Shown: positions 10,331 to 27,496, numbered from the stretch's first letter. The stretch: DNA of 64,000 bases from Candidatus Nanoarchaeia archaeon (GCA_030700155.1 JAUYJU010000016.1:1188-65187), one strand, 5' to 3'. Numbers and translations: made by a program. Notes: generated by a model from the letters alone, not told the origin.

Positions 10331-10978
10331 ATGGATAAAATAATTGGTATTGATGAAGCTGGTCGTGGGCCGGTAATAGGACCTATGGTAATGGCTGGAG
10401 TTTTAATTAGTGAAGACAAGCAAGATGACCTTAGGAAAATAGGAGTTAAGGATTCTAAGTTATTAACTGCCAAAAAAAGAGAAGAACTTTATAACCAAAT
10501 TGTTAAGATGGCTGAAAAGATAGCTATTGTTATTATATCACCTAAAGAGATTGACGAAGCTGTTGAGTCTCAAACTTTAAACTTAAATTGGTTAGAAGCT
10601 ATTAAAACTGCTGAATTGATAAATGCTGCAGAGCCTGATAGGGCTTATATTGACTGCCCTTCTAATAATATTGAAGCTTATAGAAATTATTTGAAAAAAC
10701 TTTTGAGAAAAGATGTGAAATTGATTGTAGAGCACAAAGCTGATTTTAAATATTCAACTTCGGCTGCTGCTTCTATTATTGCTAAAGTAACTAGAGACAG
10801 GGAAATTACAAAGATTCAAAAAAGGTTTAAAGATCCAATGGGTTCTGGGTATCCTGCTGATCCTGTGACTGTAGAGTTCCTGAAAAAACACTGGAAAGAG
10901 GATCAGGGAATCTATAGAAAAAGCTGGGAAACGTATAAAGAGTTGGAACGTAATTCTAGCCAGAAGACTTTAATTTAA
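10331..10978 (+). CDS. rnhB: Ribonuclease HII
   Basis: N-terminal IIGIDEAGRGPVIGPMV catalytic motif. Confidence 0.85.
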   Translation: MDKIIGIDEAGRGPVIGPMVMAGVLISEDKQDDLRKIGVKDSKLLTAKKREELYNQIVKMAEKIAIVIISPKEIDEAVESQTLNLNWLEAIKTAELINAAEPDRAYIDCPSNNIEAYRNYLKKLLRKDVKLIVEHKADFKYSTSAAASIIAKVTRDREITKIQKRFKDPMGSGYPADPVTVEFLKKHWKEDQGIYRKSWETYKELERNSSQKTLI

Positions 10979-12022
10979 ATTTTTAAAAATTTCTTTTCTA
11001 AACTTATAAGTATTAGCTTGCATTGCATATCCAAACCATCCGTGCAAACTGTTGATAAAATTATCATAAGTCAACAGTCCTTCCTTAAATAAGTTTAATC
11101 TTTCATTAAAACTCTTTTCAAATTTCTTCTTATTGCTTCTTCTTAACAATTTATAGTGGTAAAATATCTTATAACCTAGAAAGCTTACGCCGTTTCTTAA
11201 AGACAGTATTTTAGACTTGTCAGGATGTAGTTTTAGTTTAAGCTTGTTAATCAAATAATTGTTTATTATCTCTTTATAATATTCAAGAATTTTCCTATTT
11301 TTATGTAAAATCACAAAATCATCAACGTATCTTATATAGTATTTCGCTTTAAGTTTGTGTTTTACAAAATAATCTAATTCATTCAAATAAACATTAGCAA
11401 AAAATTGAGAAGTGAGGTTGCCCAAAGGCATTCCTCTGCCATTAATTTTTGGACTAAAATTACCTAATATTTGTTTTATTATCCAGATTACTTTTTCGTC
11501 CTTTATCTTTTTATGAATAATTCCCAGCAAAACCTTATGAGAGACGGTTTCAAAATAATGCTTAATATCAGCTTTCAGTAAATAGCCTTGAACCAAGTTG
11601 TTATCAAAAACATTATTTACTAATCTACCATTGCTAGAAACTTTTCTTTTGAATTTATCAAATCTTAAAACTGCCTTACTTGTTCCTTTTTTAAGTCTGC
11701 TGGCGTAAGAATCGTGTATAAATCTTTTCTCAAATATATCGCCTATTACATTAATTATCGCGTGATAAACTACTCTGTCTCTGAAATCTGAAGCGTGTAT
11801 AATCCTTGTTTTTGGTTCTCTTATAATAAACTTTTTTAGTAGTCTAGGAATATATGTTTGAGACTCTAATTCTTCTTTTAATTTATTTAAATTATTTTTA
11901 AGATTTGCTTCAAACTTTTTGACATAAGGTCTCTTTGACTTTCTTTTTCTGGCTTTTCTGAAAGCCTTGCTTAGATTCTCTATTGAACAAAGTTCTTTGT
12001 ATAATTTGTTGTAAGTTTTCAT
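10970..12022 (-). CDS. DGR-type reverse transcriptase
   Basis: RT motifs including YIRYVDDFVILH (YxDD) and MPLGNLTSQFFANVYLNELD. The SQ in motif 4 is the DGR RT hallmark (group II intron RTs have SP). 350 aa, no maturase/endonuclease domains; adjacent TR. Confidence 0.85.
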   Translation of the reverse strand: MKTYNKLYKELCSIENLSKAFRKARKRKSKRPYVKKFEANLKNNLNKLKEELESQTYIPRLLKKFIIREPKTRIIHASDFRDRVVYHAIINVIGDIFEKRFIHDSYASRLKKGTSKAVLRFDKFKRKVSSNGRLVNNVFDNNLVQGYLLKADIKHYFETVSHKVLLGIIHKKIKDEKVIWIIKQILGNFSPKINGRGMPLGNLTSQFFANVYLNELDYFVKHKLKAKYYIRYVDDFVILHKNRKILEYYKEIINNYLINKLKLKLHPDKSKILSLRNGVSFLGYKIFYHYKLLRRSNKKKFEKSFNERLNLFKEGLLTYDNFINSLHGWFGYAMQANTYKFRKEIFKNLN

Positions 12023-12049
12023 TCTTAATCGCCTAGTAAATCTTGGGCT

Positions 12050-12160
12050 ATTCCAAGGTCGGAAGTCTCGTCTAATTTCTTAGATTTCGAGTTCTGCGGA
12101 TTCCTGTTGCAATTCAGGTTAACCCTATCGGAATTCGCATCGAACCTCGCGACAGCTGTA
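12050..12160 (-). repeat. DGR template repeat (TR); aligned core 12084..12156
   Basis: Aligns to VR1 and VR2; every difference is at a plus-strand T, i.e. a template adenine on the coding (minus) strand. Confidence 0.85.
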
Positions 12161-12400
12161 GCAGATTTATCAAGTTTCACCATAACTTTAGCTTTCACTT
12201 AAAACTTCCCCAAGGTCTTTCATCACTACTAACTATTGTTATTGTATTTCATGGCATTTAGACTTAAATTGTCCATGCACTATAAATCTGCGTGTAGCCC
12301 AAGACTGCCACTTTCCTAGATTTTTACTGGGATGCAAAAATCTCAAGAGGCAAATTTAGGCAATTCTTCAGAGAATTAAAGGCTATAATAATTTAACTAC

Positions 12401-13204
12401 TCAAATTTTTTCGCGCGCCTGACGTACCCCAAGGCCGGAATTCGAGTACTGCGGATTCCTGTCGCAATCCAGGCCAACCCTATCGGAATCCGCACCGAAC
12501 CCCGCGACATGTTGGTCTCTAGGGAACCAGTAGTGTAAGCTTCCATTATTTGCATTTGGTAAAGGCAATCCTTGAGAAGTTGCATTTTGCAACCAATCTT
12601 CCAAATCTATTCCTGGATCTCTATCTGTCATCAAACAATCTTCCAAAGGTTCTGAATATTTTGGCTGTAATGGTCCATTTACAATTCTATGTCCATAATC
12701 AACCATAAATTCGCTTACTCCTAAAATACCTTTAAAGCCTTTTTTGGATTGCTTTCTGAATTTGGCATCTAGCCACTCTGCCCTATAGGGACTTCTTACT
12801 TCAATGATTTCATTTAAAATTTGAGTTACTCCTTGAGGATTTACTTTCTTTCCTGTTCCGTCGTAAACTACTTTTCCTGATTTTAACAAATTAAGGAAAT
12901 CTACGTACTGCCTTATTGTAAGCATGAAGTTTCCTTCATCGTGTAAACTTTTATGAACTTGATTCCAAGTGTGGTTGTGATATTTTCTTTCTTTTGAAAC
13001 TAACAAATCAGGATATGAATAAGAACCGTGAGTTCTTCCTTCCAATATTAAATAAGCTTCAGGATTTGAAATATTTGAAGCTGGAATTATTATCTTAGGT
13101 TTTGGTTGAGGTTCTGGAGTTTCTTTCTTAGAGTCTAAACTAGCCAGAACTTTTTTCAAATTTTCTTTAGGATCTCTTCCAAAGAATCTTTTAGGTTTTG
13201 TCAT
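12401..13204 (-). CDS. DGR target protein 1 (variable C-terminus; FGE-sulfatase / C-type-lectin-like fold inferred)
   Basis: VR1 occupies the last ~30 codons before the stop. N-terminal 41 aa identical to target 2. C-terminus ..GVRQAREKI. Confidence 0.75.
   Translation of the reverse strand: MTKPKRFFGRDPKENLKKVLASLDSKKETPEPQPKPKIIIPASNISNPEAYLILEGRTHGSYSYPDLLVSKERKYHNHTWNQVHKSLHDEGNFMLTIRQYVDFLNLLKSGKVVYDGTGKKVNPQGVTQILNEIIEVRSPYRAEWLDAKFRKQSKKGFKGILGVSEFMVDYGHRIVNGPLQPKYSEPLEDCLMTDRDPGIDLEDWLQNATSQGLPLPNANNGSLHYWFPRDQHVAGFGADSDRVGLDCDRNPQYSNSGLGVRQAREKI
12419..12499 (-). repeat. DGR variable repeat VR1 (3' end of target 1)
   Basis: 71-nt alignment to TR with 9 mismatches, all TR-T(plus)/A(coding) to A or C. 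Followed by GC-rich ccaaggccgg..cgcgcgcc (IMH plus possible hairpin). Confidence 0.85.
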
Positions 13205-14911
13205 TGTTTCACAAACCTCTTGTAAGTATTTGTTGCTGTATTAACCATTAATTTTGAAAGTTCATCTCCTGAATTTACATAAAACACAGGTAACTCCATA
13301 TTCTCAAGATCTTGCGTGAATGCATTTGATCTTCCTATTTGAATATGTGCAAAATAATTGTCTTTAGTTAATCTTTCAAATTCAGATTTAGCTGAACTCC
13401 AATTTTCTATCTCTCCGTCTGAAATAGACAAAACAAAACTTTCTCTTCCATTTAAAGCATCAACTAAAGTTTTTGCGTCTAATCTTGTGTCTTCCCAATC
13501 TGGAGATAAAGCTAATTTTCTTAGTTTTTGAATATTCTTGAAATCTGATTCTTCATATCTTGTATTTGAAGAAAATAATGATAATCCATGTCCAATATAC
13601 TGAGCTATTCCCTGAGATTGTAAAAACTGTTCAATGCCATAAAAACCTAATAAAGCATAATGATATTTACTATTATCCCCCCAAGGAATAAAAGTCGTAT
13701 CTCCTTGATTTCCATTAATTCCTTCCTGCATAGATCCTGAATTATCCAAGACAACCATCTTGAAATCAGGGAAAGACCTTTTCTGGACTTTTGCTTTTTG
13801 AGTTATTGTCAAAGGTGTTCTTTGATATCCAAATGTAATTCCTTCGTCTGTTGCATATAATTTAGTATGTTTGACTTTTCTAATGTCGTCTGTCTCTGGG
13901 TCAAAAGGTCTGAAATTTAAAGGTGCTATTGCCAAGCCTTGCTCTCTAGTCATTGCTTCAACTTCAACTGGAATTGACCTAGCTAACCTTCTGTATAATA
14001 AATCTAACTGCTCATGAGATTCAAAATTGGGTGAAAGTCCTTCTCCAGATTTGTAGCGTCCATAAGCGACTTCTTCTTTGCCTTCTTTTGTTGAAGCTTT
14101 CTCTTCCAAACCATTTCCACTTGCATCTTGACCTTGAGAATCCTGCCATGCTGAAAGTCTTTCTGTTGGTGGTATTTCTAATAAAGGTTCTAAAGCTTTT
14201 GTAAACCTTGAAGCCATTTCAGGCCATCTTGATTTGTCAAATAGTTTATTTATATCTTTTTCATCCAGATTTAATTCTTTTATTGCTTTATTAACTGCTT
14301 TTTCAACTTCTTTTGTGTTTAAATTGTGCCTCTTTAATAAAGCTTTATCTGCATTGTCTCCCCATAAATGCATGTTTAATTTAACAAAAGCTTCATAAAA
14401 AGGAGTGTAACCTTCTTGCCCTTGTTTTCTGCTTTGAAATCCTTGGTCATCCCAGAATAAAACCTGTCCTGAAAAATTTCCAGTATAATCCCTACATCTT
14501 GCATTATTTATTAAATCTTCAAAAGCGTTTGCTACATAACCTGCCTGTCCTTGCTTGTCTTCTGGTAAGGATTCTTTTACTGCTTCTAAAACTAAATCGT
14601 GGTTATGCGTATCATAAGGGCATCCGAATCCTGAATTGAATGGAAGCTCCCAGTGCCCTAATTCATGGTGTAAAATATCAGTTAATAATTGTGTTTTTGC
14701 ATCTTCAATTTTCTTTTTTCTTGCGTAGGCTTTTTGCCTTCTGCCTGTTACTGGATTAAATCCTTTTTTAACATTCATTTCTATAGTCCAATCTTTTGGA
14801 TTTATGTGCGCAGAAACGTTTTCTTTTGCTTCATCATACTCATTTAATTTCAATGTTCCGCTAACTAGACCTATACTATTCTTTATCCGGTTTAATTCTT
14901 GAACTAAATTC
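13201..14911 (-). CDS. VWA-domain protein with N-terminal HExxH metallopeptidase-like motif (MoxR partner)
   Basis: MIDAS VVLDNSGSMQ in C-terminal half; LHHELGHWELP in N-terminal part. ORF-track start (14997) runs into VR2; real ATG (MNLVQELN) at 14911, 5 nt after target-2 stop. Confidence 0.65.
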
Positions 14912-14915
14912 ATTT

Positions 14916-15620
14916 TCAAATTTTTTCGCGCGCCTGACGTACCCCAAGGTCGGAACCCGAGCCCCGCGGATTCCAGCCGCAAAACAGGCCAACCCAATCG
15001 GAACCCGCATCGAACCCCGCGACAGCTTCATCTATTGGATGCCAGAAATAAACATTATCTCCCTGCTTGTACTTCTGCAATCTTGATTTTTTGGCAGGTA
15101 ATCCTTGTTTGTTTAAGCTTGATAAATCAGCATAACATTCTTCCATTACGCAGCTATCTAGAGATTCTGTATTCTGAGGTACTAATTTACCATTAATTAT
15201 TCTGTGATTGTAACTGATTTTTAATCCGTTATTGTTCGTGAAATAAGCATCAAGATGTTCTGCTCTCCAAGGATCTCTTTTTTCAGTGATTTCATTATAA
15301 ATATTTTTGAATTCATCATTTCCATTCTTTAGAGCTTCAAGAAAATCCAAGAATTCAGGAATTGTGAGCATTCTTGCATCTTCTTTGTGTAAAGATTCAT
15401 GTGATTGATACCAATTTTTATTAAAATGTGTTTTTTGTTTCGCTATGTATAAATTGCGTGAAGGCAAATAAATATAATCTTCTTTGTCAAGACCTTCTGG
15501 AATTATTATCTTAGGTTTTGGTTGAGGTTCTGGAGTTTCTTTCTTAGAGTCTAAACTAGCCAGAACTTTTTTCAAATTTTCTTTAGGATCTCTTCCAAAG
15601 AATCTTTTAGGTTTTGTCAT
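14916..15620 (-). CDS. DGR target protein 2 (paralog of target 1, variable C-terminus)
   Basis: VR2 at 3' end. First ~125 nt identical to target 1. C-terminus ..GVRQAREKI. Confidence 0.75.
   Translation of the reverse strand: MTKPKRFFGRDPKENLKKVLASLDSKKETPEPQPKPKIIIPEGLDKEDYIYLPSRNLYIAKQKTHFNKNWYQSHESLHKEDARMLTIPEFLDFLEALKNGNDEFKNIYNEITEKRDPWRAEHLDAYFTNNNGLKISYNHRIINGKLVPQNTESLDSCVMEECYADLSSLNKQGLPAKKSRLQKYKQGDNVYFWHPIDEAVAGFDAGSDWVGLFCGWNPRGSGSDLGVRQAREKI
14940..15023 (-). repeat. DGR variable repeat VR2 (3' end of target 2)
   Basis: Aligns to TR 12084..12157 with about 21 mismatches, all at TR T(plus)/A(coding). Same GC-rich 3' flank as VR1. Confidence 0.85.
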
Positions 15621-16809
15621 CAGCTAACCTCTCAAGCAAACTTTTCATGAAAGACCATCTGCCTGAAAATACACTAAGTAATCTCTCATTTTTCTTTCCC
15701 TTGTCTGCAAGTTCCAGTCCAGCAGCAATTTTATCTTTTCTGTCATCGCTAAATTCTGTTCTAGTTGCATTAATTACAGCATCCATTGCTTTATAATGGT
15801 CTTCTCCATAGGTTTGCCTTACTAAAGCTTCATTTAATATTCCAGAGTAAGCTGAAGTGAACTTGAAAGCCTGCATCATTGATTCTAGTGGATCAGGTGT
15901 TTCAGCGCCTTTTTCCTGAACAATTTGGTCTAAAGCTTGGCTTAATGTTATAATTGATTTTGCAGCTCTTGGTGATACTGGCAAAACCAAAGCAGCATCT
16001 GAACCAGCTTCATGATTTTCCAAAGCAGTTGGCCATGCAGACTTCATTTTAGTTTTGCTTTCTCCATTTTCTAAAGTATCAAGTCCATGGATCAAATACA
16101 AAGCTATTAATTTCTTTTCATCAGATACTTCAGCTTCATTTAGTTTTCTATGGGCTTCTCTGATTTCAGCGGTCTTATCTTCTGCTTTAGCATCAAAGTT
16201 AACTCTGGGGTTTCTGTCACCGGTCAGTATTTCAAAAGTGTCAATAGGCTGAGGTCTAAAATAATCTGTATCTATAACAAGATGCATTCTGTCTCTTAAA
16301 GCTCTTCCTAATTCATTTGATGATTCTGTAAATTGCTGCCCAATATTTCCAGTAGCAATACCTACTGAATATCCATCACCAATGGGATAAGCTTTTCCAT
16401 CTATTTCTATAAAACCATCAAATAAGTTAAATAACTGAGCACGAACAGCAGGAACACAATTAGGCAATTCATCAATAGTAATCAGATTATAATTAATCCT
16501 ATCAGTTAAATCCTTGAATTTAACTCCAGCTGCATCTCCTTGTTTCAATGCTTTCAGGAATTCAGGATTGACTTGCTGGAATAATTCTCTAGTATCCATA
16601 TCATTTCTTCCTAGAATAAATAATGATTTGTCTCCAAAATAATGAGCTACATCTCTTGCTAATTGAGTTTTACCAGAACCAGTATCACCCTGTAAGAAAA
16701 CGTTTAATCTTCCTCTTAGAGCGGCCTCTACCATGTCGTGCATGTAAATTGGAACTCCATTTAAGGTAGTTAATTCAGTACTATTTCTGTAATTCTTCGG
16801 TTTGAACAT
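15607..16809 (-). CDS. MoxR-family AAA+ ATPase (CbbQ/NorQ/GvpN-like)
   Basis: Walker A FLQGDTGSGKTQLARDV, Walker B ITIDELPN, MoxR lid VLPVSPRAAKSIITLSQA. 14-nt overlap with target 2. Confidence 0.8.
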   Translation of the reverse strand: MFKPKNYRNSTELTTLNGVPIYMHDMVEAALRGRLNVFLQGDTGSGKTQLARDVAHYFGDKSLFILGRNDMDTRELFQQVNPEFLKALKQGDAAGVKFKDLTDRINYNLITIDELPNCVPAVRAQLFNLFDGFIEIDGKAYPIGDGYSVGIATGNIGQQFTESSNELGRALRDRMHLVIDTDYFRPQPIDTFEILTGDRNPRVNFDAKAEDKTAEIREAHRKLNEAEVSDEKKLIALYLIHGLDTLENGESKTKMKSAWPTALENHEAGSDAALVLPVSPRAAKSIITLSQALDQIVQEKGAETPDPLESMMQAFKFTSAYSGILNEALVRQTYGEDHYKAMDAVINATRTEFSDDRKDKIAAGLELADKGKKNERLLSVFSGRWSFMKSLLERLADDKT

Positions 16810-17096
16810 CTTCTGCCTCCTTGACTACTTCTATTTTTACTTCTACTATAGTTTTAGGCTTTAAATCATTCTTTAAAAAACTAGGGATAACTATAACTGA
16901 TTGATTGCCGTGTTTTGCAATTTTCTTTGTAATTGTGTATGTTTTTGACATTTTTTATGTATAAACTATATATTTTTACTACTTTTTAGTAATTACAGTT
17001 ATATATAAAACTTTCTGTTTTTATATTGCTTTAAAATCGACTTAAATGGCTCTTTAAACCCAATTAACCTTATTAGCAAGTTTTATAAAGCAGAAA

Positions 17097-24044: not shown

Positions 24045-27275
<3,231 letters not shown>

Positions 27276-27390
27276 AATGGTATTAACCAGTGATTTCTCA
27301 CACCTATGCACGATTCTCATAAAAATGAAAATCCTTCACCCAAGTCTTTGCGAAAGAACAGGAGCTGCATCGAATTTTTTACTTCTTAAG

Positions 27391-27496
27391 TGGACCCGTC
27401 GGGATTCGAACCCGAGGCCCCTCGCTTTTTTGATTTTCAAAAATCTTTTGAAAACATTTGCAAAGCGAGTGCTCTACCGGACTGAGCTACGGGCCC
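27391..27496 (-). tRNA. tRNA-Ala(UGC) with ~32-nt intron, in 16S-23S spacer
   Basis: gggcccgtagctcagtccggtagagcactcgcttTGCa[intron]agcgaggggcctcgggttcgaatcccgacgggtcca; G3:U70 Ala identity pair; intron after anticodon-loop position 37. Confidence 0.75.

Follow-up and report, generated by a model that had tools for sequence, protein, structure and literature searches.

A 64,000-nucleotide (nt) stretch of the genome of a Candidatus Nanoarchaeia archaeon (GCA_030700155.1, JAUYJU010000016.1:1188-65187), hereafter the window, carries a diversity-generating retroelement (DGR) whose two target genes are interleaved with genes for a MoxR-like AAA+ ATPase and for a protein combining an HExxH motif with a VWA domain. 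The cassette occupies the minus strand (10970-16951) and reads, in the direction of transcription, small open reading frame (ORF), AAA_5 ATPase, target 2, HExxH/VWA protein, target 1, RT-16 RNA, template repeat (TR) and reverse transcriptase (RT). ORF calls confirm the interleaved order, from MoxR ATPase to RT, that a first-pass annotation had proposed from the DNA; its genes, TR and variable repeats (VRs) all stand, while it had overlooked the small upstream ORF, the RT-16 RNA and a leader shared by the two targets. The features, including the initiation of mutagenic homing sites (IMH at the VRs, IMH* at the TR), are as follows.

16781-16951, minus strand: small conserved ORF, 56 residues, pI 9.0, first gene of the cassette (ORF call; most loci have a homologue upstream of the ATPase gene)
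15607-16809, minus strand: MoxR-like AAA+ ATPase of the AAA_5 class, 400 residues (Pfam AAA_5)
14916-15620, minus strand: DGR target 2, 234 residues, with leader, linker and C-type-lectin-fold body (member of the target-family alignment)
14940-15026, minus strand: VR2 (15026-14956) and IMH (14955-14940), with 16/16 TR mismatches at TR adenines
13201-14913, minus strand: HExxH (zincin-like) and VWA/MIDAS protein, 570 residues (conserved HExxH and MIDAS residues)
12401-13204, minus strand: DGR target 1, 267 residues, with the same leader, linker and C-type-lectin-fold body as target 2
12425-12511, minus strand: VR1 (12511-12441) and IMH (12440-12425), with 8/10 TR mismatches at TR adenines
12153-12347, minus strand: RT-16 RNA motif, Rfam RF03019 (91.9 bits against a gathering score of 50)
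12049-12156, minus strand: TR (12156-12086), a TR-only 21-nt hairpin insert (12085-12065) and IMH* (12064-12049)
10970-12022, minus strand: DGR reverse transcriptase, 350 residues (RVT_1, E = 2.9e-19; PHROG 1423 reverse transcriptase, E = 7e-107)

Every gene 5' of the TR overlaps or abuts its neighbour. The small ORF and the ATPase gene share 29 nt, the ATPase and target 2 genes share 14 nt, a 2-nt gap separates target 2 from the VWA gene, and the VWA and target 1 genes overlap by 4 nt (ATGA); a 378-nt spacer containing the RT-16 RNA and the TR follows between target 1 and the RT gene. The first-pass annotation had given the 14-nt and 4-nt overlaps correctly and had read the gap as 5 nt. A TATA-like sequence, AAATATATA, lies ~20-27 nt upstream of the small ORF ATG, a GGAGG is positioned 6 nt 5' of the ATPase ATG, and further Shine-Dalgarno-like sites occur within the gene run. 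Taken together, the overlaps, the internal sites and the TATA-like box suggest, at the sequence level, that the cassette is co-transcribed and translationally coupled. No transmembrane segment and no hydrophobic or signal-like N-terminus was seen in any cassette protein, in agreement with the earlier statement that the targets are without signal peptides; solely from this absence of hydrophobic segments we infer that the cassette proteins may be intracellular. The region is richer in G+C than its surroundings, as had been noted (0.339 versus 0.315 elsewhere in the window; standard deviation 0.007 and maximum 0.331 over 6-kb windows). The excess is real but small and uneven across the cassette, with only 0.271 in the RT gene, and was therefore dropped as a sign of horizontal transfer.

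The DGR in the window is intact. Over 71 nt, VR2 differs from the TR at 16 positions, every one a TR adenine (binomial P = 1.6e-9), and VR1 differs at 10 positions, eight of which are TR adenines with the other two at the 5' edge (P = 1e-3). The mismatch pattern shows, as far as the repeats can be read, the RT copying the TR, with errors specific to adenines, into the VR at the C-terminus of each target. In the target frame the TR encodes A V A R F D A N S D R V N L N C N R N P Q N S K, including six AAY codons. The IMH at the VR 3' ends is TTCCGrCCTTGGGGTA, and the IMH* following the TR is TTCCGACCTTGGAATA, separated from it by the 21-nt TR-only insert. This arrangement matches the GGGG/GGAA IMH/IMH* pattern reported for nanoarchaeal DGRs (PMC4372165). 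The RT possesses LGNLTSQ at residue 200, a DGR-type (I/L)GxxxSQ motif, and YVDD at residue 232.

Two RNA-level features accompany the TR. The RT-16 RNA ends precisely at the TR start in the window and in 8/8 related loci tested (L001, L003, L004, L005, L016, L028, L038 and L047), and appears to form the structured 5' part of the DGR RNA in this lineage. The hairpin insert, 18-36 nt long and located just before IMH*, is present in the TR and in no VR of nine loci (the window, L001, L003, L004, L007, L009, L020, L028 and L046), and is absent from ~20 others. Its outer stem is constant (CUCG/CGAG), its inner stems co-vary, and all nine lengths are multiples of 3. Complementary DNA synthesis must start before this insert or skip over it.

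The two targets begin with the same peptide. Their first 41 residues are identical because each ATG opens an exact 124-nt repeat (15497-15620 and 13081-13204), while the bodies are 41-53% identical, depending on the measure used. In the target model, the leader is hydrophilic with a short helix at residues 12-24, and is followed by a Pro/Gln/Lys-rich linker and the lectin domain. Comparison of the best 25-residue N-terminal stretch in 41 within-locus target pairs gave a median leader identity of 0.80, versus 0.33 for the bodies; between loci, leaders (0.32) and bodies (0.33) are equally divergent. All targets of a cassette thus share one hydrophilic N-terminal leader joined to a Pro/Gln/Lys-rich linker, and near-identical leaders on diverged bodies mark co-resident targets as old paralogues whose leaders have been kept alike. 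The three leaders of locus L042 are identical as protein (25/25) with 24-36% of third codon positions differing, and those of L003 and L047 behave similarly, so that selection acts on the peptide; leader DNA that is identical in some loci points to gene conversion. Recent gene conversion as the sole cause of leader identity fits the window (124/124 nt) and was rejected on the evidence of L042, L003 and L047. The leader is also specific to its cassette: a second cassette of the same genome (P0002 and P0122, on a 233,749-bp contig) has a VWA protein 82% identical and a target 59% identical to those of the window, with a different leader.

The ATPase matches Pfam AAA_5 with 40 bits (E = 3.6e-10), where the cutoff is 22. 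Of 23 orthologues, 19 likewise match AAA_5, and six of the 23 also give a weak bpMoxR match. Searched against solved structures, the family profile finds midasin as its nearest relative (3.4e-10), followed by MoxR (2r44, 0.003). Invariant residues comprise G41, G46 and K47 of Walker A, E114 of Walker B, and N155 and R174 at the sensor and arginine positions. The N-terminus, MFKPKNYRNSTELTTLNGVPIYMHDM..., has no Trp before the P-loop.

The VWA protein, starting at the ATG at 14913 and spanning 570 residues, is identical to P0001 from a 'Candidatus Nanoarchaeia' metagenome-assembled genome. Its predicted structure contains a Rossmann-like VWA fold, with the NorD VWA domain and the metal-ion-dependent adhesion site (MIDAS) domain of midasin as structural matches, and the polypeptide ends with this domain. 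Among 27 homologues, the MIDAS residues D391, S393 and S499/D500/G501 are invariant, with S395 conserved in at least 90%; H84, E85 and H88 of the HExxH motif and a downstream NAFED are likewise invariant. The HExxH, MIDAS and ATPase residues persist across 23-27 homologues, down to 22-58% identity. In the model, the HExxH domain is mostly helical behind a small sheet, a zincin-like layout that makes it a putative zincin-like metallopeptidase.

Standard annotation passes over most of these proteins. Pfam VWA models match neither the window protein nor 26 close homologues; P0376, a distant relative, scores above the PF00092 threshold (25.7 bits; cutoff 23.8). Neither target 1 nor the VWA family profile retrieved a useful match when compared by sequence with the PDB, and Pfam, NCBIfam, PADLOC and PHROGs yielded nothing for either target, the small ORF or the VWA protein. 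The position of the small ORF is occupied in L003 by a CopG/RHH_1 protein; the ORF is probably a small DNA-binding regulator and may be that of the cassette. The by-eye label 'AbrB-like' for it was dropped because no test supported it.

Homologues of the VWA protein number in the hundreds at 57-82% identity in Nano-, Woese- and Pacearchaeota, and the family comprises ~412 representative clusters matching at E <= 0.001. Four long contigs found by protein identity carry the gene order of the window. A scan of one genome per species gave 47 loci. ORFs were called in all loci and compared with five profiles, one for each cassette protein, and a TR/VR detector was applied to the same DNA; core counts were taken from 20 non-redundant loci with at least 3.5 kb of flank on each side. 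Recurrence of the pair beside homologous DGR targets had been named beforehand as the test of the proposed association, and the association held, with the pair adjoining homologous targets in every core locus. The ATPase gene accompanies the HExxH/VWA gene in 20/20 core loci and VRs flank the VWA gene on both sides in 15/20; an RT was detected in 16 of the 20, and adenine-biased TR/VR pairs in 17. Each of the 14 core loci, counting the window, that reach 54% identity or more in the VWA protein contains VRs. A locus typically runs from the small ORF through the ATPase, one or two targets, the VWA protein and a further one or two targets to the RT-16 RNA, TR and RT; in some loci the RT is upstream on the opposite strand.

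This recurrence is far beyond chance, and shows that ATPase, VWA protein and targets always occur together. Insertion of a DGR into an unrelated MoxR-VWA operon would draw on nothing more than DGR mobility, for which the integrases adjoining L003 and L005 speak. The interleaved order is kept with VWA proteins only 26-71% identical to that of the window and with different flanking genes; we therefore regard mere adjacency as excluded, its residual probability being negligible. The same variation of flanks between loci, together with the nearby integrases, suggests that the cassette moves as a unit.

Several cassettes (among L035, L036, L038, L039, L041 and L050, and also L030) lie on contigs binned as Methanosarcinales and one on a contig binned as the bacterium Maribellus. 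Locus G+C contents range from 28% to 52%. These cassettes either reach past DPANN or represent mis-binned symbiont DNA.

The family also includes relatives that occur apart from a DGR. No RT or TR was found within 8 kb in distant branches of the VWA family (26-43% identity, including L045, L048 and L050). Five such loci (L045, L048, L050, L051 and L052) encode the HExxH/VWA protein with arrays of three to eight paralogues that share a leader of their own. The ATPase is kept as well, except that it was not found on L052, where only 1.7 kb lies upstream of the VWA gene. In L045 (4269-5186 and 11306-12358) and L048 (5479-14253), two to seven paralogues surround the pair; they are beta-propeller-like rather than lectins and share the N-terminal motif IIGNRK..L..L.REA / GNRK.SLEELA. 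L050, L051 and L052 have paralogues of other kinds, those of L050 being target-like and ending in GVR. Because the pair and the leader-tagged arrays are retained in these loci, the ATPase and VWA protein are tied to leader-tagged proteins and not to the RT. The pair thus probably goes with leader-tagged proteins rather than with retrohoming, the DGR being an addition that diversifies one kind of them.

These loci bear directly on a retrohoming role, in which the ATPase, the VWA protein and/or the small ORF would substitute for a missing Avd by acting on the RT-RNA complex or on cDNA integration. Avd, a four-helix bundle (PF05635), has no ORF in the cassette or elsewhere in the window, and among 52 loci it was detected only in L041 (226-732, E = 1e-31), leaving 51/52 without it; moreover, the ATPase and VWA genes sit inside the DGR in all close relatives. 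Such a substitution would nevertheless leave the cassette-specific target leader with no role and would not account for the pairs that keep leader-tagged arrays with no RT or TR within 8 kb (L045, L048 and L050), and the DGRs linked to MoxR-vWA genes in bacteria use MoxR-vWA as partners of the targets. We consider it improbable.

We favour, at a probability of roughly 0.55, the reading that the cassette is a conserved archaeal (DPANN-type) unit, in which the DGR diversifies two small cytoplasmic C-type-lectin-fold partners of a MoxR-like ATPase and a zincin-VWA adaptor. The leader would be a docking peptide that holds each variable protein on the VWA/ATPase pair, most likely at the MIDAS face of the VWA domain, by analogy with other MoxR-VWA pairs, whose MIDAS sites bind extended peptides (PMC7159879). 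The variable lectin surface would bind a ligand, the ATPase would remodel the complex, and the HExxH domain may act as the output or processing enzyme. Overall, the cassette would form a compact, split counterpart of the bacterial MoxR-vWA 'ternary' systems. The first-pass annotation had proposed the variable proteins as clients or exchangeable subunits of an ATPase-VWA machine; this interpretation is partly supported, with indirect backing from the shared leader and from the leader-tagged arrays of the DGR-less loci. Functional linkage of the cassette members is strong; the mechanism is what we infer from it.

Several observations weigh against this reading. Identity to the DGR-less relatives is low (26-43%), and an RT of theirs could sit elsewhere in the genome. 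The cassette has neither a third, 'VMAP' component nor the death or effector domains usual in the bacterial systems, and PADLOC returned only a weak generic AAA+ match on it.

A more specific version of the favoured reading would make the cassette a DPANN intracellular, DGR-driven 'antigen-receptor': arrays of leader-tagged lectins would be mounted on an ATPase/zincin-VWA hub, ligand capture would trigger the protease, and the leader would serve as a cassette-specific address tag preventing cross-talk. We offer this version tentatively, at well below even odds. Alternatively, the pair could act as an assembly or display chaperone, maturing the variable proteins and loading them onto an extracellular or surface structure that attaches the episymbiont to its host, with the leader as a pro-peptide cut by the HExxH domain. 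An attachment role is favoured in the literature. The leader is hydrophilic, however, and no signal peptide, transmembrane segment, or secretion or surface-structure gene is found in the cassette or recurs beside it; such a chaperone is rather unlikely.

Linkage of MoxR-vWA genes to DGRs is already published for multicellular bacteria, including cyanobacteria and Thiohalocapsa (Kaur et al. 2020, PMC7159879; Dore et al. 2024, PMC10907252), where the DGR-diversified FGS/CLec domains are proposed to be effectors or intracellular sensors of invaders. The VMAP-type ternary systems among them resemble the window cassette in grouping a MoxR-class ATPase, a vWA/MIDAS protein and a DGR-diversified C-type-lectin-fold domain in one neighbourhood, in having components predicted to be cytoplasmic, and in fusing an enzymatic domain to the vWA protein, a position in which a metallopeptidase is rare in those systems. 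They differ in several respects. The host of the window cassette is a reduced-genome archaeon and not a multicellular bacterium; the lectin-fold proteins are encoded by separate genes and not fused to the vWA protein; and the cassette lacks a VMAP component, any other large conserved gene and any relevant Pfam match. Caspase, trypsin, TIR and EAD domains are absent, the vWA protein of the window escapes Pfam, and the ATPase N-terminus, as read by eye, is without the aromatic WxhapG / PsWRxa motifs described for those systems (PMC7159879). The cassette therefore resembles a VMAP-type system in its working and is not a member. The beta-propeller MoxR-vWA ternary system is set apart by the absence, in our model, of any residues after the VWA domain and by the weakness of the bpMoxR matches, seen in 6/23 ATPases.

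Closer in host are the nanoarchaeal and DPANN DGRs and AvpA (Paul et al. 2015, PMC4372165; Handa et al. 2016, PMC5006420). They come from the same kind of organism, the related locus L010 deriving from the same single-cell genome, AAA011-G17, and they share the IMH/IMH* signature (TGGGGT / TGGAAT), small CLec-fold targets and the occurrence of several cassettes per genome. Their targets were described as orphans or as a new CLec subclass, with no ATPase or VWA gene mentioned (PMC4372165, PMC5006420). In bacteria that belong to the candidate phyla radiation (CPR), CLec-AAA ATPase fusions are attributed to Paul et al. 2017 by PMC10907252, and 'Midasin-like' matches were reported in some targets of a CPR set (UVR4; Wu et al. 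2018, PMC5758913). As far as these accounts go, both cases, in ultra-small prokaryotes, likewise link a midasin/MoxR-type AAA+ ATPase with a domain that a DGR diversifies. The CLec-AAA cases form one polypeptide with no VWA partner in the account given, whereas in the window ATPase and lectin are encoded separately, and a zincin-VWA gene lies between those of the two targets.

The classical MoxR-VWA pairs RavA-ViaA, CbbQ-CbbO and NorQ-NorD, and midasin/Rea1, similarly combine an ATPase with a MIDAS adaptor acting on a specific client. Each of these pairs serves one fixed client, whereas cassettes of the window type have two to four paralogous hypervariable clients and an adaptor with an additional conserved HExxH domain. 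We found no description of the split archaeal MoxR/VWA-DGR form in the literature searched, an earlier mention in Paul et al. 2017 being possible. New here are the near-identical leader on the targets within a cassette and the leader-tagged non-lectin paralogues around a DGR-less pair.

Elsewhere, the window contains archaeal 16S and 23S rRNA genes and is itself archaeal. A group I intron (RF00028, 53.9 bits) is located at 25061-25348 on the minus strand, within the 23S gene (24045-27286). A 106-nt Rfam tRNA match (58 bits) at 27391-27496 on the same strand, between the 16S and 23S genes, was not called by ARAGORN and is probably an intron-containing spacer tRNA.

The function of cellular DGR targets is a long-standing question, sharpest in the ultra-small DPANN archaea, in which DGRs are unusually abundant. 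The present analysis links what looks like the commonest DPANN target family to an ATPase and a protease-like MIDAS adaptor that standard annotation had missed, and the short, cassette-specific leader provides a direct handle for binding and cleavage tests. Should this link hold, the 'DGR-diversified sensor + MoxR-vWA' design would reach from multicellular bacteria to reduced archaeal symbionts, which would weaken the proposed tie of such systems to multicellularity and speak against the variable proteins of DPANN archaea serving in surface attachment alone.

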